Part shown: positions 32,652 through 43,872 of the stretch, piece after piece
Position numbering within the stretch: position 1 is the stretch's first letter
Layout of the letters: the number at the start of each line of letters is the position of its first letter
Source: an uncultured Acidobacteriota bacterium
GTDB lineage: Bacteria; Acidobacteriota; Vicinamibacteria; Fen-336
Direction: 5' to 3'
DNA: 64,000 nucleotides
Assembly: GCA_963720545.1 (NCBI GenBank)
Contig: OY970399.1
Coordinates: 2,304,001 to 2,368,000 of the forward strand
The notes under the pieces: model-generated
Told to the model about the DNA's origin: nothing
The model's database searches: none
What the model saw: only the letters and a program-made list of their open reading frames with translations
Position numbers and translations under genes: made by a program

Positions 32652-33773
32652 ATGGAACCGGCGCTCCTGACTGGCCTCACGTTCCTGGCAACTGCAAGCC
32701 TCAGCGCCGCGCTGGTGCCGCCGGTGCGCGCGCTGGCGCGCCGCGTCGACGTCATCGACCGTCCCGGAGGACGCCGCGGCCACGTGGCACCCACCCCGCG
32801 CCTCGGCGGGCTCGCCATCTTCTGCGCGTTCTTCGCCATCGTCCTCGGCGGCTACTGGCTCGCCCTCACGATGGGCGAAGCCGGCATCGCGCGCACCACC
32901 CTCGGCGCGGCGGCGGAGCGGCTGCGCGAGGCGTGGCGGGTCGAGGGCAAGCTGCTCGGCATCATGGCAGGCAGCATCCTCATCTTTGCGGTCGGCATGA
33001 TGGACGACATGTTGGGCGCCCGCTTTCCGGCGCTCGCCAAGCTGCTCGGCGAGCTGGCCGCGGCAGCGATCGTCGTCTATGCGGGCGTGCACACCACCTT
33101 CATGCCCGCCCACTGGATGAACGCGGTGGTGACGCTCCTGTGGATCGTCGGCATGACCAACGCGTTCAACCTGCTCGACAACATGGACGGGCTCGCCGCC
33201 GGCGTCGCGTTCATCGCCGCCTTTGCCCTGCTCGTCAATGCCTGGAGCCTGGGCACCTTCTTCGTCTGCCTCATCCTGGTCGCCTTCATGGGCAGCCTGC
33301 TGGGTTTCCTCCTCTACAACTTCCACCCGGCGTCCATCTTCATGGGTGACGCCGGCAGCCTGTTCATCGGCTTCGTCATGGCGACGATCACGCTGCTCGA
33401 GACTTATGTCTCGAAGGCGTCGAGCTCGCTGTTCCCGGTGCTGATGCCGGTGCTGGTGCTGGCGGTGCCGCTCGTCGATACCGCCACGGTGGTGATCATC
33501 CGGCTGCTCGAGCGGCGTCCGATCTACGTCGGTGACCAGCGCCATCTCTCGCATCGGCTGGTGGCGCTCGGCTTCTCGCGTCCCGCGGCGGTACTGCTCA
33601 TCTACTTGTTTTCGCTCTGCCTCGGGCTGGGTGCCGTCTCCCTGGTCGATGCGACCCCCCTGCAAAGCGCTCTGGTCCTGCTCCAGGCGGTCGTTTTTGT
33701 CACGCTGCTCCTCTTTCTGATGTTCGCGCCGCGCGGGACTGCCCGCGATGCGCTCCAAAGGTCCACCGACTGA
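32652..33773 (+). CDS. wecA: WecA/TagO-like undecaprenyl-phosphate HexNAc-1-P transferase
   Basis: PRLGG, GMMDD, NAFNLLDNMDGL, IFMGDAGS, HLSHRL. Confidence 0.85.
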   Translation: MEPALLTGLTFLATASLSAALVPPVRALARRVDVIDRPGGRRGHVAPTPRLGGLAIFCAFFAIVLGGYWLALTMGEAGIARTTLGAAAERLREAWRVEGKLLGIMAGSILIFAVGMMDDMLGARFPALAKLLGELAAAAIVVYAGVHTTFMPAHWMNAVVTLLWIVGMTNAFNLLDNMDGLAAGVAFIAAFALLVNAWSLGTFFVCLILVAFMGSLLGFLLYNFHPASIFMGDAGSLFIGFVMATITLLETYVSKASSSLFPVLMPVLVLAVPLVDTATVVIIRLLERRPIYVGDQRHLSHRLVALGFSRPAAVLLIYLFSLCLGLGAVSLVDATPLQSALVLLQAVVFVTLLLFLMFAPRGTARDALQRSTD

Positions 33774-35161
33774 TGTCCACCGCGCTCTTCCTCGCCGCGT
33801 TGCTGCTGGCCCAGGCCCCGGCACCGGCACCGACGCCCTCGCCGGACGTGAGGGCGCTGTTTCCAGAGCCCGAGGCGCCCCCCGAACCGCCGCCGCCCGC
33901 CCCGAGTGAAAACGGACCGCCAGGCATCGCCATCGGCGCGGGCGCGCTGCAGCCGTCGCTGGTCCTGTCGCTGATCCGCGGCGACATCTTTCCGAGCGCC
34001 ACCGCCGAACGCCCGTTCAAGGTGCGCGACACCTACTTCCAGATCGAGCCGCGCCTCAACTTCGTTTATCCGGTGGGCGCGGGCGGCGAGTTTCGCGCCG
34101 GTTACGAACCGGCGTTTCGCCGCGGCAGCGCCCTTCAAGAGGTGACAGCGTCGAGCCACCGGCTCGGCGCCGGGATCGAACTGCCGCTGGGAACGAGCTT
34201 CCTGCTGCGCGCCGCCGATCAGTGGTCGAAGGGCATCCTCGACGTCACCCAGGTGGATCCCGGCCAGGAATATTTCTTCCGCCTGCAGCCCTTCAGGCAC
34301 AACGTCTTCGACGTGAATGGCACGCTCGCGGGCGGCGACACCAGCATCGACGGCGGCGCCACCCTCAGCCGCGTCACGATCGAGCCCGGCTCGGGCTTCT
34401 TCTCGAACCGCTCGCAACAGTATTACGGCGGCATCAGCCGCAGCCTCGCCGCCACGCTGCGGCTGCGCCTCGGTTACACCCGCGAGCGCATCCCGCGCCC
34501 CATCGACCGGCCCGAGGTCGAGAGCCGCGCCAACATCTACACGCTCAGCCTCGACGGCACCCTGGCACCGCTGCTTGACGGGCAGATCTCGGCCGGCTAT
34601 CGCGACCAGAAGACGCCGAACGCCGGCGCCGGCGGCCGGAGCTTCAAGGGTCTGGTGGTCGCCGGGCGCCTCGAGAAGGAGTTCACGCGTTCGACCCGCC
34701 TCGCGCTCTGGGGCAGCCGCGACACCCGCGTGGACCTGCTGCGCCGCAACGGGCTCTACGCGACGACCGGCGGCCAGCCCGAAATCGCACTGCCCACCAC
34801 CTCCGCCTTCGAGGAGAACGCCTTCTACGTCGCCAAGGCATTCAACTCCGAGCTGCAGTTCGAGCTGCCTCTGCAACTCACGGCGCGCGCCGCGGCGCAG
34901 TGGCAGAACAACGAATACCGCACCGTCGCCTCGGCCATCGGCAAGCGGCGCAGCGACGATTTTTTCGGCTGGGCGCTGGGCTTCGGGCGTTCCCTCACAC
35001 GCCACGCCTGGGTGAGAATCGACTATCGTCGTGACCGCCGGGACTCCAACATCGACGTCTTCGACGTCAGGACCGAGGCGCTGCTGGTGCAGCTCGGCTT
35101 TGGCTTCCAGGGATCGCGCGGCCGGCCGAAATTCAGCGGCGGCAGCGAGAGCCAGGACTAG
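33773..35161 (+). CDS. Outer-membrane beta-barrel of polysaccharide export (BBP2-like)
   Basis: Signal peptide, Pro-rich linker, amphipathic beta-strands; sits directly before wza-wzc. Confidence 0.65.
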   Translation: MSTALFLAALLLAQAPAPAPTPSPDVRALFPEPEAPPEPPPPAPSENGPPGIAIGAGALQPSLVLSLIRGDIFPSATAERPFKVRDTYFQIEPRLNFVYPVGAGGEFRAGYEPAFRRGSALQEVTASSHRLGAGIELPLGTSFLLRAADQWSKGILDVTQVDPGQEYFFRLQPFRHNVFDVNGTLAGGDTSIDGGATLSRVTIEPGSGFFSNRSQQYYGGISRSLAATLRLRLGYTRERIPRPIDRPEVESRANIYTLSLDGTLAPLLDGQISAGYRDQKTPNAGAGGRSFKGLVVAGRLEKEFTRSTRLALWGSRDTRVDLLRRNGLYATTGGQPEIALPTTSAFEENAFYVAKAFNSELQFELPLQLTARAAAQWQNNEYRTVASAIGKRRSDDFFGWALGFGRSLTRHAWVRIDYRRDRRDSNIDVFDVRTEALLVQLGFGFQGSRGRPKFSGGSESQD

Positions 35162-35165
35162 GCGG

Positions 35166-36029
35166 ATGAAACTACTGTTGCGCAGCGTCAGGTTCGCATC
35201 GCTCGCCGCCGGCCTGCTCCTCGGCCTGGTCGCGGAAAGCCGCGCCCAGGAAACCGCGGCCGCCGCGCCGGACGAGTATCGTCTCGGCGCCGGCGATGTC
35301 CTCGACGTCATCGTGATCGGCAACCAGGACGCCTCACGCGTCGCACCCATCGATCCCGGCGGCACCATCACGCTGCCGCTCGTCGGCGAGGTGCCGGTGG
35401 CCGGTCGCACCCTCGCGGAGGTGCGCCAGGAGGTGACGGCACTGCTCGCGAAGGACTACCTCGTGAACCCGCAGGTTGACGTGCGCATCAAGGAGTACGG
35501 CAGCCGTTTCGCGCTCGTCGTCGGCGAGATGCGCCAGCCGGGCCGGCGCCCACTGCGCGCCAACAGCCGGCTCATCGACGTGCTCATGGAGGCCGGCGGC
35601 TTCACGCCGCAGGCCTCGGGCGATGTGCTCATCACGCGCGTCGATGGCACGTTCCCGGACGGCAGCAAGAGCCTGCGCGTGCGCATCACCGCGCAGAACG
35701 CGACCGCAGCCGACCACGCCGGCGTCGAAACCACGCTGCACGCGGGCGACATCATCGTGGCGGCGCCCAAGGCCTACGTCATCGTCGAAGGCGAAGTCGC
35801 GCGTCCGGGGCGCTTCGTGATCGACGGCAACCTCACGATCACCGGCGGCATCTCCATCGCCGGCGGCCTCACCCGCTACGGCAGCAGCACCGTGAGGATC
35901 CGCCGCACCGATGCCGCGGGCAAGACCGCGATCACGGAGGTCGATCTGAAGGCGATTCGCAAGGGCAAGGCCGAAGACGTGCTGCTGCAGGCGGACGACG
36001 TCGTCAGCGTCAGCCGCCGCCGGTTCTAG
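35166..36029 (+). CDS. wza: Polysaccharide export protein (Poly_export + SLBB)
   Basis: YRLGAGDVL, GTITLPLVG, GEV.RPG, L..DDVV. Confidence 0.88.
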   Translation: MKLLLRSVRFASLAAGLLLGLVAESRAQETAAAAPDEYRLGAGDVLDVIVIGNQDASRVAPIDPGGTITLPLVGEVPVAGRTLAEVRQEVTALLAKDYLVNPQVDVRIKEYGSRFALVVGEMRQPGRRPLRANSRLIDVLMEAGGFTPQASGDVLITRVDGTFPDGSKSLRVRITAQNATAADHAGVETTLHAGDIIVAAPKAYVIVEGEVARPGRFVIDGNLTITGGISIAGGLTRYGSSTVRIRRTDAAGKTAITEVDLKAIRKGKAEDVLLQADDVVSVSRRRF

Positions 36030-36061
36030 GCGCCAGTGGCTTCGCCCATGGGGAGGACGTA

Positions 36062-38185
36062 GTGCCCGCACCGATCACGCTCGCATCGCCGCCAGGTCCG
36101 GCGCTGCCGGGTGCGCACGCCGAAGAGGCGCGCTTCGACCTGCGCTACTACGCGCACCTCCTGTGGCGCGCGCGGCTGCTGCTGGTGGCGGCCGCCCTCC
36201 TGGGCCTCGGGCTGATGACGCTCTACGGCTACCTGCAGACCCCGGTGTACCGCGCCAACGCCATGCTGCAGATCGAGCCGCCGACGCCGATGCTCATGAA
36301 CGTCACCGATTCGCTTCTCGGCAGCGGCTCGTTCTGGCAGAACGCCGACTTCTACAACACGCAGTTCAAGATCCTCAAGTCGCGGGGCCTGGGCGACAAG
36401 GTGGTGGCGGCGCTGAAGCTCGACGCGCAGCCCGAGTTCAAGGGCGCGCGCGATCCGGGCTCCATCTTCATGGGGCACGTCGAGATCGAGCCCATCCCGG
36501 AGAGCCGGCTCGTCAACGTCAGCATCCGCCACACCGACCCGCAAGCCGCGGCCGACTGGGCGAACGCGCTCGCCGACCTGTTCATCCGCGAATCGGTCGC
36601 CAACCGCATGCAGCAGGCGACGCAGGTGATGGACTGGCTCACCGAGCAGGTGAAGCAGACGCAGGCGTCGATGCAGACGGCGCAGACCGAGCTCATCCAG
36701 GGCCTGCAGCGCCGGGACCTCGCGACGACGCCGGGCGCGCAGTCGACGATGGACGCGTCGATCGAAAGGCTGCAGACCGAGTACCTGGAGGCCAAGACGC
36801 GGCGCATCACCATCGAGGCGGCGCTGACGCAGATCCGCGACCTGCGCAGCCGCGACCTCGGACTGCAGTCGGTGCCGCAGGTGGCGGCCGACCAGCAGAC
36901 CGCGGCGCTCGACGCCGAGCTCGCGGGTCTCGAGTCGCAGCTCTCCATCCTGCGCGGGCGCTTTCGCGAGGGCCACCCCGAAGTGCTGAAGGTGACGGCG
37001 CAGATCGCGCAGACCAGGCGCGCCGTCGCCGACCGGGCCAACGCGGTGGCGGCCGGGCTGCAGGCGGAATACACGCAGCTGCAGAAGCGCGAGTCCGAGC
37101 TGCAGGGCGCGATCGGCGGACAGCGTGCCGCCGCCGTCAACCAGTCGCGCGCCACCGCCGAGATGGAGACGCTGCGCAAGCGCACCGACTCCACCAAGAA
37201 CCTCTACGACGTGCTGCTGCAGAAGCTGAACGAGACCAACATCGCCGCCTCGATGCGCAACAGCAACGCCTCGGTGGTGGAGCGCGCCACCGTGCCGGTC
37301 GCGCCGGTGTGGCCCGACAAGCGCCGCATCGCGCTCTTCGGCCTCGGTGCGGGCCTGCTGGCTGGCGTCGGCCTGGTGCTGTTGCGCGATCACCTCGACA
37401 ACACCTTCAAGGATCCGGAGGAAGTCGAGCGCTACCTGCACACCGAACTGCTCGCGGCGATTCCCAGGGCCGGTGATCCGCGCCTGCTGACCGAGGCTTA
37501 CCAGAACCTGCGCACCGCGCTGCTGTTCGCGCGCCGCTCCGAAGAAGGCCAGATCGTGCTGATCACCGGCACGGCGCCGCAGGAAGGCAAGACCACGACG
37601 CTCGTGAACCTCGGCAAGCTGCTGGCGGCGGCGGGAGAGTCGACGATCCTCGTCGACTGCGACCTGCGGCGCGCGCAGGTGCACGATCGCCTGGGGCTGC
37701 CGCGCGAGCCAGGCGTCACCAACTACTTCACCCAGCACCTCGGCATCGACACCCTGGTGCAGTCGGGCGGCGCGCCCGCGCTCGCGGCGCTCACCGCCGG
37801 ACCGCTGCCGCCCAATCCGCCGGCGCTCCTCGCCCGCGGCCAGCTCGACAACCTGTTTGCCGAGCTGCGGCAGCGCTACCGGTGGATCCTCGTCGACTCA
37901 CCGCCGCTCGCCTCCGTGACCGACGCGCTGCTCCTGGCGCGCCGTTCGGACATGGTGGTCGTGATCGTCAAGCACAACGGCATCGACAAACGGCTGGTGC
38001 GCCGCGCCATTGGCGCGCTACGGCGGGTCGGCGCGCCGCTACTCGGCGTGGTACTGAACATGTTGGAACTGCACGTCGGCAACTACTACTACTACTATTA
38101 CAACCGGCAGGAGAGTCCGCCGGGCGCTGTACCGCAGGTCATCAAGCCCCACTTGCGGCGCGTCGCCGCAGGAGACGACCGCTAG
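36062..38185 (+). CDS. wzc: Polysaccharide co-polymerase / BY-kinase
   Basis: Two TM segments flanking a coiled coil; PQEGKTT, DCDLRR, VDSPP; C-terminal YYYYYY cluster. Confidence 0.92.
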   Translation: MPAPITLASPPGPALPGAHAEEARFDLRYYAHLLWRARLLLVAAALLGLGLMTLYGYLQTPVYRANAMLQIEPPTPMLMNVTDSLLGSGSFWQNADFYNTQFKILKSRGLGDKVVAALKLDAQPEFKGARDPGSIFMGHVEIEPIPESRLVNVSIRHTDPQAAADWANALADLFIRESVANRMQQATQVMDWLTEQVKQTQASMQTAQTELIQGLQRRDLATTPGAQSTMDASIERLQTEYLEAKTRRITIEAALTQIRDLRSRDLGLQSVPQVAADQQTAALDAELAGLESQLSILRGRFREGHPEVLKVTAQIAQTRRAVADRANAVAAGLQAEYTQLQKRESELQGAIGGQRAAAVNQSRATAEMETLRKRTDSTKNLYDVLLQKLNETNIAASMRNSNASVVERATVPVAPVWPDKRRIALFGLGAGLLAGVGLVLLRDHLDNTFKDPEEVERYLHTELLAAIPRAGDPRLLTEAYQNLRTALLFARRSEEGQIVLITGTAPQEGKTTTLVNLGKLLAAAGESTILVDCDLRRAQVHDRLGLPREPGVTNYFTQHLGIDTLVQSGGAPALAALTAGPLPPNPPALLARGQLDNLFAELRQRYRWILVDSPPLASVTDALLLARRSDMVVVIVKHNGIDKRLVRRAIGALRRVGAPLLGVVLNMLELHVGNYYYYYYNRQESPPGAVPQVIKPHLRRVAAGDDR

Positions 38186-38206
38186 CAAAGCGCCGGATCG
38201 ACCCCG

Positions 38207-39565
38207 CTACTCCTGGCTCGACGGTGCGCTGGCCTGGACCGGGCTCGGGACTTCCGGGATCGGCACGAAGGGGGAGACGCCAGGAACCGTCGGCGGCTCG
38301 CCGGCAGTCGGAGCCGGCTGCCCGGGAACTGCGACGTGAGTGACCTGCTGTCCCGACGGCGGGTTGGGCTGGGGCGGTGCCACGTCCGCGCAGCTTGCGC
38401 CCATGCTGGCGCGGTTTTCCTTGCGCAGGAAATCAACGGCGTCGACCATCTTGCTGCGCGTGACCGGACCGTCCGGGCCGAGTTCGAGGCCGAGGCCCTT
38501 GAGGGCCGCGACGTACGCGTCCGCGCCGGCCTGCTTGCGCTGCACACGCACAGCTTCGACGGTGGAGTTGGGGCCGAGGCGCACCGCGACCGCGTGTGGG
38601 CCGGCAGTGAAGTCGGATGACAGCACCGGCGTCCATTCGCCCGCAGCGGTGCCGCGCCGCGAGCCGGTGCAGACCACTTGCTTCTTGCAGCCGTCTGCCG
38701 TCCACTGCTGCCCGCCGTTCAGGTTGCCCTTGACGGAGACGGTGTAGAGGCCGGCTTCGGGAACCTGGAACGTGAGCAGGCCTTCGGCGCCTTGCGGGCC
38801 GGAGTCGAAGTTGTCCGTAACGGCCGCCTGCCGCAGCGCCGGCAGGTAGCGTGCGATGGCGCTGCCCGGCAGGTCGAGCGGCACGCCGGCGGGGGCGAGT
38901 TCCGATTCCTTGTCGAGCGCGCGCAGCGTCGTCACCGCCACGTCGTCGGTGGTCGCGACCTTCGCGGTCTGCCAGCCGCCGAGCGGCTCGATGTTGGTGA
39001 CGCACGGCGGCACCACTTCGAAGCGATCGAGCGAAGTGCCGGGCGGCAGCAGCACCGAGGCGAGGTAAGCGCCGCCTGCGAGCTGCACGCGGCCGCCGTC
39101 GACCCAGGCCGCCTGCGCCGCGGGGCGCAGCGTGAACGTAGCGAGCGGCTTGTCGCCCTTGCGATCCGTCACTTCGACGGACGCCGGCTTGTCGGCCGGG
39201 CCGCTGAGGTGTGCGCGAATCTGGTATTCGCCGGGGCGTGCGACGGTGAGCGGATAGCTCGCCTGCCCGACGCCCGCTTCGGCGGCGACCGCGTTCGGCG
39301 GGTCGCCGAGCACGCGCACCGCATCGGCTTTCTCGAACTCGCTGCCCTTGAAAGCCAGGCTCGAGTGCCACGCGAGAGCGCCGAAGGCAACCGACGCCGT
39401 GTCCATTCCCGGGCTTTCGAGGTCGAGGCCACGCAGCATCATGCGCGCCCATTCCGGGTGGCTGACGGCGGACACCCGAGGGTCTCCGTAGAGCGGATAA
39501 AGCAGAGCGAAGCCGACGGTAACCGCAGCCGCGACCGCAATGCCGAGGGAGCTTTTCGACTGCAT
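38207..39565 (-). CDS. Exported/membrane-anchored hypothetical protein with beta-sandwich (CBM-like) segments and a Pro-rich tail
   Basis: Hydrophobic N-terminus; YPLTVARPGEYQI and FQVPEAGLYTVSV repeats; codon usage matches host genes. Confidence 0.7.
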   Translation of the reverse strand: MQSKSSLGIAVAAAVTVGFALLYPLYGDPRVSAVSHPEWARMMLRGLDLESPGMDTASVAFGALAWHSSLAFKGSEFEKADAVRVLGDPPNAVAAEAGVGQASYPLTVARPGEYQIRAHLSGPADKPASVEVTDRKGDKPLATFTLRPAAQAAWVDGGRVQLAGGAYLASVLLPPGTSLDRFEVVPPCVTNIEPLGGWQTAKVATTDDVAVTTLRALDKESELAPAGVPLDLPGSAIARYLPALRQAAVTDNFDSGPQGAEGLLTFQVPEAGLYTVSVKGNLNGGQQWTADGCKKQVVCTGSRRGTAAGEWTPVLSSDFTAGPHAVAVRLGPNSTVEAVRVQRKQAGADAYVAALKGLGLELGPDGPVTRSKMVDAVDFLRKENRASMGASCADVAPPQPNPPSGQQVTHVAVPGQPAPTAGEPPTVPGVSPFVPIPEVPSPVQASAPSSQE

Positions 39566-39590: not shown

Positions 39591-39639
39591 TTGACAACTT
39601 GTCCACGGCTAACTTAGCCTCCGAGGCCAGGCATGTCAA
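39591..39639. promoter_or_regulatory. Overlapping divergent sigma70-like promoters
   Basis: Plus strand TTGACA (39591) - 18 - TAGCCT (39615). Minus strand TTGACA (39639-39634) - 17 - TAAGTT (39616-39611). Confidence 0.55.
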
Positions 39640-40691
39640 AGTGTATCCAACACACTCTCATAGACATAGCCCGGGTTCGTCACCTCAAGCGGGTGCCTTC
39701 CGGCATGCCCGGGAACGACCTTTGCCGCGCCGCCGAACGGCAGGGGGTCCTGGCCCTCTTCGGCCCCTCGAAACCACCCGTCTTCGCCGCCGCGATGGTG
39801 CGCGAGGCGGTGCGCACCACCCGGCTCCTCGACCTCGCGCTGCGCCTCCAGGCGCACCTCGAAACACTCGGTGTGCGCTCGCTCACTTTGAAGGGCGCAG
39901 CACTCCACGGCACGGCTTACCCGGATGTCGAGAGCCGTCCGATGGTCGACGCCGACCTGTTGGTGCTCGACGACATCGCGAGCGCCGAGGCGGCGGCGCG
40001 TTCGCTCGGCCTCGTGTTCGTCGAGCGCGCCGATCACGCCGTCGCGTATCGCGAACCCCGAAGTGGCGCGATGGTCGAGCTGCACTGGAGCGTCACCTCG
40101 GCGCCCGGGTTCTTTCCGGTCGACAAGGAATCGCTTTGGCGCGGCCGCCGCCGGCTCGCCACGGGCCTCTTGGCGCCGTCGGCCGCCGACACGCTGGTGC
40201 TGCTCGCGCTGCACGCGGCGTTTCAGCACGGCCTGGTGCTGCGGCTGGTGCAACACGGCGACTTCCACGCCTTGTTGGCGAGTGAGGGGCCCGATCCGCG
40301 GCGCATCGTCGCGCGCGCCGCCGAGTGGCGTGCGGGCCTCGCCGTGGTTGCTGCACTGCAGATCGCCGGCCACTTGCTCGGCACGCCGGACCGAGCGGCA
40401 GCGGTGCTCGCCGAGCTGCGCGATTTCCGGCTGCGCGGGCCGCTCGCGCGCCACGTCGCGAGCGCGGCGGAAACGCCCGAACGCTTTCTCGAGCCGGCCG
40501 AGCCGCGCCTCGCGATGGTGCGCCTCTCACTGGCGCGCGGGCACCGACTCGACCTCGTGCGCCGCACGCTCTGGCCGCTCTCGCCCGACGACGGGAGCGC
40601 GCGCGGCTTCACTCGCGCCGCTTTGGGCGTGCGCCGCGGCGCGCGCCTCGTCGGCCGCCATTTCGCCGGCTGGGCCGGCAGCGCGTCGTGA
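39633..40691 (+). CDS. Nucleotidyltransferase (NTP_transf_5-like)
   Basis: LKGAAL...YP....RPMVDADLLV and VELHW motifs. The real start may be ATG 39705. Confidence 0.82.
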   Translation: MSKCIQHTLIDIARVRHLKRVPSGMPGNDLCRAAERQGVLALFGPSKPPVFAAAMVREAVRTTRLLDLALRLQAHLETLGVRSLTLKGAALHGTAYPDVESRPMVDADLLVLDDIASAEAAARSLGLVFVERADHAVAYREPRSGAMVELHWSVTSAPGFFPVDKESLWRGRRRLATGLLAPSAADTLVLLALHAAFQHGLVLRLVQHGDFHALLASEGPDPRRIVARAAEWRAGLAVVAALQIAGHLLGTPDRAAAVLAELRDFRLRGPLARHVASAAETPERFLEPAEPRLAMVRLSLARGHRLDLVRRTLWPLSPDDGSARGFTRAALGVRRGARLVGRHFAGWAGSAS

Positions 40692-41119
40692 TCGATCACG
40701 ACGGCGCCGCGAGCGCAGCCGTCGCGCGCGAGGCCGTCGCGTTGAACCTCGCGGCCGCGGCCTCGGTGTGCATCCGCGTCAGCGGCCGCTGCATGGAACC
40801 GGCGCTGCTCGCGGGCGAACTGGTGGAGCTGCGGCGCACGCGGCCGCGGGTGGGCGACGTGGTGCTGGCGCAGCTGCCGCAGGGCCTGCGGCTGCATCGC
40901 CTGCTGCTGAAGCTGCCGCTCGGCGCTGGCTGGCGCACCAAGGGCGACCGCTGCGACCCGTGGGACGCGAAGATCTCCGGCCGCGAGGTGATCGCCACGG
41001 TGGTGCGCTCGTGCGCCACCGGCCGTACGCCCCATAGCCGCGGATTGGCTCTGCGTTCGCTCGCGTCTGCGCTACGCTGGCGCCTGCGCGTGCAGCGCAT
41101 CAAGCCGGAGGGACAATGA
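40688..41119 (+). CDS. S24/S26-fold peptidase with Cys in place of the catalytic Ser
   Basis: GTG overlaps the NTase stop; RVSGRCMEP.L..G, GDVV, LHRL, TKGD motifs. Confidence 0.75.
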   Translation: MIDHDGAASAAVAREAVALNLAAAASVCIRVSGRCMEPALLAGELVELRRTRPRVGDVVLAQLPQGLRLHRLLLKLPLGAGWRTKGDRCDPWDAKISGREVIATVVRSCATGRTPHSRGLALRSLASALRWRLRVQRIKPEGQ

Positions 41120-41433
41120 CGCACAACCCGCTGCGCACCATCTACGCGCGCTCCGACCGCATCGTCGGCCGGCGTATCGGCCCGGAGTTCGTGCTGGTGC
41201 CGCTCGTCGGCCACGGCGCCGAGCTCGAGGCGATCTACAACCTCGGCGGCGCGGGCGTCTTCATCTGGGAGCGGATCGACGGCCGCACCGACGGCGACAC
41301 CATCGTCGACGAGATGATCGCGGCGTTCGACGTGCAGCGCCCGGAAGCGGCGGAAGACTACGCGACCTTTACCCGCCACCTCGTCGAGATCGGCGCCCTG
41401 AAGGTGGTTTCGGCGCCGATCCGCCGGAAATGA
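41116..41433 (+). CDS. PqqD-family RiPP recognition element
   Basis: 105 aa; RRIG.E.VLVP, IYNL...G.FIWERIDG, F...L.EIG. Confidence 0.88.
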   Translation: MTHNPLRTIYARSDRIVGRRIGPEFVLVPLVGHGAELEAIYNLGGAGVFIWERIDGRTDGDTIVDEMIAAFDVQRPEAAEDYATFTRHLVEIGALKVVSAPIRRK

Positions 41434-42301
41434 TCGCGCCCACGGCTGCCACCGCCGAGGCGTCCTTGCGAAAGGCGAGCGAGTAGCTCGGCACCGCGCG
41501 CGCGAAGCTCTCTGCGGTGCGCAGCACCGCGAAGAAGGCAGCCGGCTCCCACGGCGGCAGGAACGAAAAGGCCAGCAGCTGGCTGGCGAAGCCCTGCGGC
41601 TCGATGCGCGTGAGCGCGGTGGTGCGCGACTGCTTCAGCACGAACAGTGCCCGCAGCCGCAACGCGCGCGGCGCGGCATGGCGCGCGGTGCCGTGCCACG
41701 GCGTGCCGTACGCCCACCACTGACCGCGCCGCCGGCGGATCACGAGACGATCGTCGCTCAACACGCTGGCGAGCGGAGCATGCCGGCGAAACAGGCGGCT
41801 GATCGTGGACTTGCCCGCCCCCGAATGGCCGGTGAACGCCACCAGGCCGCGGCCGGTGTCGACGCCGCTCGCATGCAGCACCAAGCCGCCGTCGTAGGCG
41901 AAGTGGTGCTGCAGCAGCAGCTCGTCGAGCGGGAACGAAAGCGCGAAGCCGCGGTGAGCGAGGTACTCGCCCGGCGCCAGGTAGAGCGTGCCACGGCGGC
42001 GGCGACGGTCGATGAGGAGGCCGCGTGCCGGCGGGCCCTTGCCCATGGGGCGGCGAAAGACGTAAAGGATCTTCGCGCCGACTTCGTACGCGCGCCAGGT
42101 TCCGCCCGATTCGAAGACCGGTGCTGCGTCTGGCACCGGCACCGGCGCCAGCACCACCTCGAGGTCGATGTCGGCGCCGCTTTTTGCGCCGAACGCTTCG
42201 TAGCCGCGTGGCAGGCGCAGCGCCGGTGCCCTGGTGTCGTAGCGGAGCCTGATGGTCCTGCCGCCGATGCGCAGCCGCAGGCTGTGGGCGCGCCGCCGCA
42301 G
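41369..42301 (-). CDS. HPr-kinase-like P-loop protein (ScmC/HprK-related)
   Basis: VLHASGV, FTGHSGAGKST, LSDDRLVI, YGTPWHG. No ATG is present; the start is CTG 42301 or a GTG inside the rSAM 3' end. Confidence 0.78.
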   Translation of the reverse strand: MRRRAHSLRLRIGGRTIRLRYDTRAPALRLPRGYEAFGAKSGADIDLEVVLAPVPVPDAAPVFESGGTWRAYEVGAKILYVFRRPMGKGPPARGLLIDRRRRRGTLYLAPGEYLAHRGFALSFPLDELLLQHHFAYDGGLVLHASGVDTGRGLVAFTGHSGAGKSTISRLFRRHAPLASVLSDDRLVIRRRRGQWWAYGTPWHGTARHAAPRALRLRALFVLKQSRTTALTRIEPQGFASQLLAFSFLPPWEPAAFFAVLRTAESFARAVPSYSLAFRKDASAVAAVGAIISGGSAPKPPSGRRSRRGGG

Positions 42302-42306
42302 GACGG

Positions 42307-43587
42307 CTAGCTGCGGGCCGCGGCCGCTGCGGCGCGGACCGGGCGCTCGATCTGGATCAGCGCTTGCGCCTGCGGCTGCGCGGGTTCCGAGTGGCTGCAC
42401 GAACCGCAGCCGCCGAGGTGAATCTCGGCATCGGGTCGCGCGGCGAGCACGCCCGCTCCGACGCAGCACGTCGCGTCGCGGCGATGGCCGCTGTCCTTGC
42501 CGAGCGCCGCGAACGCGCGCAGGTGCGTGACCTCGCAGAAGTTGCGCAGCAGCGCCGTCGGGTCGCCGGTGGCAAGCTCGGCCGAACCCGGGCAGTTGCC
42601 GCAGCCGCTGCGCAGCGTGCACGACTGGCATACCGAGTTGTCCTGCCACTGGCGCGAGCGAGCCTGCGGCAGGAACTCGTTCCAGCCGGTGTCGAAGCTG
42701 CCTTGCTTCAGGTCGTAGGAAGCCTTGCGCGCCAGCTGGCACAACTGCAGCTGGCCATAGGGATCGACGGTGAACGACATCTGCCCGGCGCCGCACTCGA
42801 ACACCTGCTCGGCCACGGCGATGCGCACCTCGCCGCCCGCGGCCGCCGCCGCCGGCGCAAAGGCGTTCCAGATCTTCGCGCGGGTCAACTCGTCCGCGAG
42901 GTCCACCGCGAGAATGTCCTCGGCGTTCACCTGCAGCTCGCCGTTGCGGTTGGCGCCGCAGTCGACGCGCGCGTTCAGCAGGCTGTCGTGGCGGAAGCTG
43001 GTGCCGAGGTTCGCGGCGAAAGCGCGCATCGCCTCGATCTCGTGGACGTTCCAGGAGAGCACCATGGTCTTGAGCTTGAGGTTCAGGCCGCGGCGATAGA
43101 GGCGCTCGATGCCGGCTATGCACTTCTCGAACGAGCCCGGCACGCGGGTGACGCGGTCGTAGGTCGCCTTCGTCATCCCGTAGAGCGTGACCTCGATGGC
43201 GGCGGGACGATGCGCGCTGAGGAAGTCGGCGATGTCCTCGGTGACCATGGTCGCGTTGGTGAAGATGCCGACGCGCAGGCCGCGGCCCAGCGCGTGCAGG
43301 TAGATCTGCCTGAAGTCCCTGCGGATCAGGACCTCGCCGCCGGTGAGCAGCAGCTCGAAGGCGCCGGCGTCCGCCACCTCGTCGATCAGCGTCTTCACCC
43401 GTTCCGTCGACAGCTCGCGGCGCATCTCTTCCGCGTCGCCCGCCGGCTTGTTGACGTAGCAGTGGACGCAGTTGAGGTTGCAGCGGAAGGAGGTCTCGAT
43501 GGTTCCGTCCCACGGCAGACGCCGGCCGCTGACGTCGAGGCTGTGGGCGAAATCGGCGATCGAGATTTCGTCGAGTACGGTCGTCAT
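42307..43587 (-). CDS. Radical SAM/SPASM peptide maturase
   Basis: CNLNCVHC, TGGE; SPASM motifs CGAG...DPYG...C and CQSC.....CGNCP...C. Confidence 0.92.
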   Translation of the reverse strand: MTTVLDEISIADFAHSLDVSGRRLPWDGTIETSFRCNLNCVHCYVNKPAGDAEEMRRELSTERVKTLIDEVADAGAFELLLTGGEVLIRRDFRQIYLHALGRGLRVGIFTNATMVTEDIADFLSAHRPAAIEVTLYGMTKATYDRVTRVPGSFEKCIAGIERLYRRGLNLKLKTMVLSWNVHEIEAMRAFAANLGTSFRHDSLLNARVDCGANRNGELQVNAEDILAVDLADELTRAKIWNAFAPAAAAAGGEVRIAVAEQVFECGAGQMSFTVDPYGQLQLCQLARKASYDLKQGSFDTGWNEFLPQARSRQWQDNSVCQSCTLRSGCGNCPGSAELATGDPTALLRNFCEVTHLRAFAALGKDSGHRRDATCCVGAGVLAARPDAEIHLGGCGSCSHSEPAQPQAQALIQIERPVRAAAAAARS

Positions 43588-43612: not shown

Positions 43613-43774
43613 CTAGCTGCCCTGAGCCGAGTTGATGAGGGTGCCGCCGCGGTTGCAGACGTTCGCGGACACCATGTTTCGCTTGCAGCCCGTCACGGCC
43701 AGCTCATCGGCAACAAGGTTCACTTTGCGAATCCGGGGTGTCTCGTAAGTGGCCTTCGCCTGCTTCGTCTTCAT
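43613..43774 (-). CDS. RiPP precursor peptide, 53 aa (not in ORF track)
   Basis: Hand translation: MKTKQAKATYETPRIRKVNLVADELAVTGCKRNMVSANVCNRGGTLINSAQGS*. SD AGAGGAG lies 3 nt before the ATG; the stop is 25 nt upstream of the rSAM start. Confidence 0.85.
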   Translation of the reverse strand: MKTKQAKATYETPRIRKVNLVADELAVTGCKRNMVSANVCNRGGTLINSAQGS

Positions 43775-43804
43775 TGACTCCTCTTCCGGCTCGACGGCTC
43801 GGGT

Positions 43805-43872
43805 AGCCTAAGCCCTACCTCGCGCGGGTGTAAAGCCGCGCGTTGACACTGTGCTCTGCCTCACGCTACCCT
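43805..43872. promoter_or_regulatory. Back-to-back promoters for the precursor (minus) and fur (plus)
   Basis: Minus strand TTTACA (43834-29) - 18 - TAGGCT (43810-05). Plus strand TTGACA (43843) - 18 - TACCCT (43867). Inverted repeat CGCGCGG-N8-CCGCGCG at 43821-43842. Confidence 0.55.

Follow-up and report, generated by a model that had tools for sequence, protein, structure and literature searches.

We analyzed a 64,000-nucleotide stretch of DNA from an uncultured Acidobacteriota bacterium (GenBank assembly GCA_963720545.1, contig OY970399.1, positions 2,304,001 to 2,368,000; hereafter the window) and found that a small peptidase homologue encoded in it carries a Cys at the position of the catalytic Ser of the S24/S26 fold. 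The protein is probably a cytoplasmic relative of the archaeal/endoplasmic reticulum (ER)-type signal peptidase I that lacks a transmembrane (TM) segment, has Cys35 in place of Ser, and serves as the leader peptidase in a pathway to a ribosomally made, post-translationally modified peptide (RiPP) that is guided by a RiPP recognition element (RRE). Most likely, it trims the leader of a peptide modified by a radical S-adenosylmethionine (rSAM) enzyme and made by the neighboring genes. The Cys-type peptidase is a real and conserved feature and almost certainly a functional one. Somewhat less firmly, we favor a wider view: the protein represents a widespread natural Cys lineage of leader peptidases with a Cys/His/Asp arrangement within a fold that is otherwise known for Ser peptidases only; Ser and Cys have been exchanged repeatedly among such RRE-guided enzymes in several phyla; and the cluster, which adjoins an exopolysaccharide export locus, makes an undescribed acidobacterial RiPP that undergoes rSAM Cys cross-linking, phosphorylation of the HprK type, and tailoring by a nucleotidyltransferase.

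The peptidase gene and its candidate catalytic residues lie at the following window positions.

40688-41119, forward strand: soluble peptidase homologue of the S26 fold (SEC11/SipW/LppS-like), 143 aa, GTG start, with Cys35, His70, Asp87, and Asp93
40790-40792, forward strand: TGC codon of Cys35, at the nucleophile position of the GxSMxP box, which reads GRCMEP (residues 33-38)
40895-40897, forward strand: CAT codon of His70, in GLRLHRL, aligned with the catalytic His of SEC11A
40946-40966, forward strand: Asp87 (GAC, 40946-40948; end of RTKGD, residues 83-87) to Asp93 (GAC, 40964-40966), aligned with both Asp of the SEC11 motif TKGDNNxxDD

A first-pass annotation of this DNA had described a GRCMEP box with a TGC codon, a retained TKGD, and the lack of a clear N-terminal TM segment, and all three are borne out in the open reading frame (ORF) 40688-41119(+). 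The highest mean Kyte-Doolittle hydropathy over 19 residues (KD19) was 1.54, at residues 11-29, which include R14, E15, and N20, and an AlphaFold2 model placed a helix of only 15 residues at residues 10-24. It is thus inferred that the peptidase has no membrane anchor. A KD19 window of at least 1.6 was also absent from 200 of the 211 Cys-type homologues; some of the weakest Ser-bearing matches (P0233 and P0234) have an N-terminal hydrophobic anchor with KD19 values of 1.7-2.35, and others are soluble like the query. The GTG start shares GTGA (40688-40691) with the stop of the upstream NTP_transf_5 gene, and the stop shares ATGA (41116-41119) with the ATG of a PqqD-family gene. These overlaps at both ends of the gene are compatible with translational coupling, which had been proposed for the PqqD gene. 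The source genome is a single contig of 4.09 Mb and contains one copy of the peptidase gene.

The family assignment is weak from the peptidase sequence alone. Peptidase_S24 of Pfam (PF00717) matched with 15.2 bits (E 0.017; cut-off 23.3), and sigpep_I_arch (TIGR02228), the best NCBIfam model, with 16.4 bits (E 0.0063; cut-off 51.85). Fold and profile searches confirm the assignment. The AlphaFold2 model, built with 40 aligned sequences, has a mean predicted local distance difference test score (pLDDT) of 90.0, a predicted template modeling score (pTM) of 0.83, and the S24/S26 fold, in agreement with the signal-peptidase fold that had been claimed from the motifs. The best 12 rows of the Foldseek search were all S24/S26 proteins (UmuD', LexA, SpsB, SEC11C, and SipA; top E 1.9e-3), as were the first 38 rows of a VIA-align search with the model, and ESM Atlas returned S24-labelled clusters only, which were commonest in Acidobacteriota, Myxococcota, and Bacillota. 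When the family profile was compared with solved structures, human SEC11A (E 0.0055) and SEC11C were the best matches, and the alignment to SEC11A placed Cys35 on the Ser of SGSMEP, His70 on the His of VHRV, and Asp87 and Asp93 on TKGDNNxxDD.

Since the best matches were SEC11 and the archaeal-type model, His70 is the ordinary base of the Ser/His/Asp branch and does not replace the Lys of LepB or LexA. The His of LHRL, which had been noted together with the Cys, is thus present but is no second oddity; it is the normal base of the archaeal/ER-type branch (SEC11, SipW, LppS). Since two Asp residues (87 and 93) are conserved, a Cys/His/Asp arrangement is likelier than the bare Cys/His dyad of the first-pass annotation, whose broader proposals, a cytoplasmic RRE-coupled thiol leader peptidase and a part like that of the lasso B2 Cys protease, agree with the best-supported reading. 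With SEC11A, SEC11C, SipW, and archaeal signal peptidase I, the protein shares the fold and the boxes SM-P, GD, HR, and KGD..D. Those signal peptidases are membrane-anchored Ser enzymes that act on secretory signal peptides outside the cytoplasm, whereas the present protein lacks a TM segment, has Cys instead of Ser, and stays under the cut-offs of the curated models. The S24 proteins LexA, UmuD, and lambda cI and the S26 proteins LepB and SpsB use a Ser/Lys dyad, whereas here His70 stands in the HR box common to SEC11. Unlike LexA, UmuD, and lambda cI, the peptidase has neither a DNA-binding domain nor a self-cleavage site.

There is a negligible probability that the Cys arose from faulty sequencing or assembly or from an inactivating mutation restricted to this strain. 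Soil-metagenome contigs from two other, different studies (X1 and X2) span 40790-40792 and are identical to the window there, and they differ from it only at 40819, 40846, 40873, 40879, 40927, 40953, and 41035. A third contig (X3) starts at 40789 and says little on the Cys codon, and parts of 40600-40750 have no contig cover. GRCMEP was also found in P0001 and P0002, which are 98% and 90% identical to the peptidase, respectively. Among the 120 homologues listed in a word-index search (124 at E ≤ 1e-3), the box reads GxCMxP in 99, GxCLxP in 10, and GxSMxP in 2; nine of the 120 begin at or after the Met of the box, which suggests truncated gene calls. An exhaustive search of 50%-identity representatives gave 270 proteins at E ≤ 1e-3.

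For the conservation counts, all 251 collected sequences were aligned to the family profile. The nucleophile column contained Cys in 214, Ser in 14, a gap in 23 that are truncated at the N-terminus, and no other residue, so that 214 of the 228 covering sequences have Cys. His70 is kept in 250, Arg71 in 251, and Asp87 and Asp93 in 246 each. The error reading is refuted by these counts together with the metagenomic contigs; the two checks proposed with the first-pass annotation, for a base error and for Cys as a subfamily trait, both came out in favor of the Cys. In a FastTree tree of the 229 rows covering the nucleophile column, built with that column excluded, the Ser label needs 8 changes, and well-supported branches force at least 2 of them; the tree is built from few columns relative to its rows, and many of its forks are unresolved. 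Since the homologue counts are biased toward relatives of the query, they mark Cys as a clade trait and do not make it the commoner state overall. A role of Cys35 in a disulfide or metal site was considered and rejected because no second Cys is conserved along with it. The sole other column in which Cys is frequent is that of window residue 20, in the N-terminal helix, with Cys in 130 of the 251 homologues and Asn in the window protein. An engineered Ser90Cys form of the E. coli leader peptidase is reportedly active and sensitive to thiol reagents, which our literature search did not confirm.

The strongest argument that Cys35 does the job of Ser is that Ser and Cys types interchange in orthologous gene clusters. 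In the window, the peptidase gene is accompanied by the following genes.

39633-40691, forward strand: NTP_transf_5 (PF14907) nucleotidyltransferase-like gene, upstream of the peptidase gene (E 7.9e-34)
41116-41433, forward strand: PqqD-family discrete RRE, downstream (PF05402, E 7.7e-13; lasso_PqqD_Bac, 1.3e-7, below cut-off)
about 41369 to 42340, start approximate, reverse strand: HprK-related/ScmC-like P-loop protein, a putative peptide kinase (HprK_rel_B, 2.9e-5; ScmC, 7e-5; both far below cut-off)
42307-43587, reverse strand: radical SAM/SPASM peptide maturase (Radical_SAM, E 2.2e-21)
43613-43774, reverse strand: precursor peptide, 53 aa, with a YxxP leader (14-sequence alignment)

No second protease gene was present among the genes of this cluster. 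The PqqD gene and the HprK-like ORF lie on opposite strands and overlap at their 3' ends by 65 bases (41369-41433), so that the convergent operons share sequence.

The family profile matched in 116 of the 401 sampled genomes of the phylum at E ≤ 1e-5, and the named relatives belonged to Acidobacteriota, Vicinamibacteria, and Holophagae. A related-locus search of genome contigs gave three loci, and a wider genome search was added for breadth. We compared 23 larger loci, namely 20 regions of 12-16 kb (at most 8 kb per side; a few end at contig ends) from 20 genomes, and L001-L003. When these were searched by tblastn with the window proteins, the rSAM protein was found in 18, PqqD in 17, the HprK-like protein in 14, and NTP_transf_5 in 5; Pfam added a PqqD in L042 that tblastn had missed. 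Seven loci are Cys-type (L001, L002, L003, and L034-L037), as is the window, and five of the seven have an rSAM gene. The other 16 (L038-L053) are Ser-type; 13 of them have an rSAM gene, most also PqqD and an HprK-like gene, and 8 a recognizable precursor of the same family. The 29 top-ranking non-self loci from the phylum search comprised 4 of the Cys type and 25 of the Ser type, one of the latter (L030) from the unpublished genome G152. The family profile reached the Ser-type loci at E values of 1e-17 to 1e-28, and a search seeded with the soluble Ser-type protein P0208 gave six matches with no useful names. Orthologous clusters thus use either nucleophile.

This interchange also bears on whether the protein is a peptidase at all. 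A pseudo-peptidase that keeps the fold could act as a mere scaffold, holding or chaperoning the complex of precursor and RRE so that the rSAM enzyme, the kinase, or the nucleotidyltransferase can act on it; it would then be similar to SipA of Streptococcus pyogenes, an inactive homologue of signal peptidase. We consider this unlikely. A scaffold needs neither the near-invariance of the four catalytic positions nor a nucleophile column restricted to Cys and Ser; Ser-type orthologues hold the same place in the same type of cluster; and the Ser homologue LppS is a proven peptidase (PMC13381572).

The linkage to the peptidase is physical in some homologues. All 10 representatives of at least 404 aa carry NTP_transf_5 on the N-terminal side of the peptidase domain (9 above the Pfam cut-off and 1 weak), and in a search limited to longer proteins PF14907 was found in 52 of 56 and Cys at the nucleophile position in 56 of 56. 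The single metagenomic sequence P0115 has a Cys-type domain fused to PqqD (24.5 bits; cut-off 23.4). As a separate observation, a Peptidase_C25 region is joined to a Cys-type domain (GDCMRP) at the N-terminus of the 1391-aa protein P0310, and at L044:10125-14291(+) a C25 protein of 1389 aa is encoded directly after the rSAM gene.

The small ORF at 43613-43774 belongs to a real gene family, as judged from its conservation. In 14 precursors from 13 places, Tyr10, Pro13, Leu20, Glu24, Cys30, Lys31, and Cys40 are invariant, and the C-terminal Gly52-Ser53 is nearly so (Gly-Ser/Thr), with no follower peptide. Tyr10 to Leu25 comprise 16 residues, which matches Tyr-16 to Thr-1 of LppA, and Glu24 falls at the position of Glu-2 of LppA. 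Two cleavage sites are possible. By analogy with LppA, the cut may fall after residue 25, with the 16-residue spacing from Tyr and Glu24 at -2; judging from the precursor alignment, it may alternatively fall directly before Cys30-Lys31. The residue preceding the invariant Cys is G or A in Cys-type loci and S, A, F, or N in some Ser-type loci. Cleavage before Cys30 with small residues at -3 and -1 would therefore fit the Cys-type precursors but not the Ser-type precursors with F or N there.

In the mechanism that we propose, the PqqD RRE would bind the YxxP leader of the 53-aa precursor and present it to the peptidase, and, by analogy with LppS, the PqqD-leader complex may dock on the helix at residues 10-24. 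Cys35 would be activated by His70, itself oriented by Asp87 and Asp93, and its thiol would attack a peptide bond between Glu24 and Cys30-Lys31, after which the leader-thioester would be hydrolysed. The rSAM/SPASM enzyme is expected to modify the core, in which its two to four Cys are the candidate substrates. The HprK-like kinase and then NTP_transf_5 probably modify the core as well, perhaps at the conserved C-terminal Ser (Gly-Ser/Thr).

A thioester intermediate could also have another fate. Cys/His enzymes such as sortases favor thioester aminolysis, and the switch to Cys might thus have been adaptive for a new chemistry in which the acyl-enzyme is used for transfer (transpeptidation or ligation) instead of hydrolysis. 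The size and stability of the Cys clade and the invariant Cys-Lys after the leader are in line with this. The acyl group, however, would be the leader itself, whose transfer has no evident purpose; the precursors end in Gly-Ser without a follower peptide; and the interchange of Ser and Cys within one cluster type argues for the same reaction. Acyl transfer is thus very unlikely, and hydrolytic removal of the leader is preferred.

A different question is whether the adjacent precursor is the substrate. In L035 (genome G059) and L001 (genome G401), the trio of NTP_transf_5, peptidase, and PqqD genes keeps its place between polysaccharide genes (BBP2-Wza-Wzc-unk452) and Fur, with no rSAM block, and the precursor-rSAM-HprK genes of these two genomes lie on other contigs, one with a PqqD of its own (loci listed as L056 and L057). 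Since the trio and the precursor-rSAM-HprK block are on separate contigs in two genomes, the system is modular. Furthermore, Ser-type paralogues without a TM segment, of about 205 aa and with a long C-terminal extension, are encoded beside secA in L045:7809-8450(-), L046:7800-8414(-), and L053:7794-8399(-), and no RiPP genes were present near them in these three loci. Their other neighbor is an acyl-CoA dehydrogenase or hexapeptide-transferase gene; in two of the three genomes, an acyl-CoA dehydrogenase gene and RNase Y lie upstream of the paralogue. Such a paralogue may be a housekeeping soluble S26-like protein. These arrangements would suit an active thiol peptidase with another substrate, for example one tied to the polysaccharide-export locus. 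However, in the window, L036, L002, L034, and L037, the Cys-type gene and the precursor-rSAM block are linked, and in two of these loci (L036 and L002) all genes point the same way, in the order (NTP_transf_5-)peptidase-PqqD-precursor-rSAM-HprK. Where the trio stands alone, the genome nevertheless has a gene for a precursor of this family at another place. Thus, another substrate is improbable, and the precursor of the rSAM block remains the most likely one.

Several points weigh against the favored reading. Its scores to the curated S24/S26 models fall below their cut-offs. In L035 and L001, the trio stands apart from the precursor-rSAM-HprK block and could serve another substrate. The cleavage site is ambiguous from the precursor sequences, in which the residue before the invariant Cys varies in the Ser-type loci. 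In addition, no MsbA-like exporter or other transporter was found among the window ORFs from 33.7 to 48.6 kb, so that no exporter gene adjoins the cluster, unlike in the clusters for linear polyphosphorylated peptides (LPPs) of Bacillota.

One flank of the cluster (33773-39565) contains a porin-like gene, polysaccharide export genes (Wza-like and Wzc-like), and a gene for a 452-aa protein without a Pfam match, and this order is kept in three relatives (L036, L035, and L001). The position beside polysaccharide export genes echoes that of Bacillota LPP clusters in capsule loci. On the other flank are Fur, a gene of the enolase superfamily, and one of the Mur-ligase family that we read as FolC-like. 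The Fur-family gene starts 77 bases from the precursor gene (43774-43851) in the opposite direction. This adjacency may be mere synteny, since Fur stays in place in relatives with or without the rSAM block.

Provided that the thiol is the catalytic group, the signal-peptidase/LexA fold would belong to the small set of protease folds for which nature employs Ser in some cases and Cys in others, and the Ser-type and Cys-type pairs within one gene-cluster family amount to a natural experiment on why a nucleophile switches. A possible reason is the reducing cytoplasm beside an iron-sulfur enzyme. LppS-type leader peptidases would extend beyond Bacillota and be tied to rSAM chemistry, and a compact six-gene cluster is marked for its peptide product in an uncultured soil Acidobacteriota. 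A small, RRE-guided leader peptidase that can be switched by thiol reagents could also serve RiPP engineering.

In the open-access literature and bioRxiv, our searches turned up neither a natural Cys form of the S24/S26 fold nor a cluster type that combines rSAM, HprK, and the peptidase; term look-ups in PMC7470986 and PMC12710340 gave neither in the passages that they returned. The closest systems are those of lasso peptides and LPPs. The lasso B2 protein is a thiol peptidase, as is predicted for the present one, which is also expected to depend on a PqqD-type RRE and on a YxxP leader. B2, however, has a transglutaminase fold and works with the B1 RRE, whereas the model here matches S24/S26 proteins only, and no lasso cyclase or Asn-synthase-like gene is present among the window's cluster genes. 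According to the sections consulted of a review (PMC8498205), lasso precursors of the paeninodin type are phosphorylated on their C-terminal Ser by HprK homologues, in pseudomycoidin hexoses are attached to this phosphate by a nucleotidyltransferase, and such nucleotidyltransferases are sometimes fused to the B2 leader peptidase in some Firmicutes clusters. The fusions of NTP_transf_5 to the Cys-type peptidase parallel the last of these.

The nearest relative described is LppS (Popov et al., Nat Commun 2026, PMC13381572), a SipW-like soluble Ser leader peptidase for the LPPs of Bacillota. As reported in the available parts of that paper, LppS is encoded with an RRE, an HprK kinase, and an NTP transferase, often in capsular-polysaccharide loci. 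It cuts the YxxP-bearing leader after Thr-1 only when the RRE LppB is present, and its variants S29A, H68A, and D93A are inactive. In an AlphaFold3 model, the RRE-leader sheet docks on the N-terminal helix of LppS, and the leader residues Phe-3, Glu-2, Thr-1, and Leu-10 matter for cleavage. The authors state that signal peptidase I-like peptidases were previously undescribed in RiPP pathways and that LPPs occur only in Bacillota. Their main text uses the word "cysteine" twice, and the occurrences displayed concern the lasso B2 peptidase. Supplementary Data 1 contains Acidobacteriota homologues, of which the one row displayed (OLE53994.1) is Ser-type with an adjoining RRE; in the BLASTP set, seeded with the P. 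alginolyticus peptidase, such an Acidobacteriota Ser-type protein with an RRE resembles the Ser-type loci found here. A search of the same table for six CMxP strings only gave two Cys-bearing singletons (rows 182 and 192), GHCMAP in Thiolapillus brandeum, with an adjoining RRE, and GNCMHP in Paenibacillus kobensis, on which no comment was found in the portions of the paper at hand. These two forms hint at independent Ser-to-Cys switches in other phyla.

Compared by description and not by direct alignment, LppS and the window protein are both small soluble SipW/archaeal-type homologues in which an N-terminal helix replaces the TM anchor. In both systems, a discrete PqqD-type RRE, an HprK-like kinase, and an uncharacterised NTP transferase are encoded alongside, the precursor has a YxxP leader, and polysaccharide genes adjoin. 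Comparison of S29, H68, and D93 of LppS with Cys35, His70, and Asp87 and Asp93 here indicates that His and Asp are conserved, whereas the nucleophile differs. Further differences are the added rSAM/SPASM maturase, the Cys-containing core, the lack of an adjoining MsbA-like exporter, and the phylum Acidobacteriota. An RRE-dependent RiPP leader peptidase of the signal-peptidase fold has already been published as LppS, and the new elements are the Cys nucleophile and the rSAM context only. The window protein is thus a variant of the LppS-type leader peptidase with a predicted Cys nucleophile, and both its radical-SAM setting and its phylum are new for this type.

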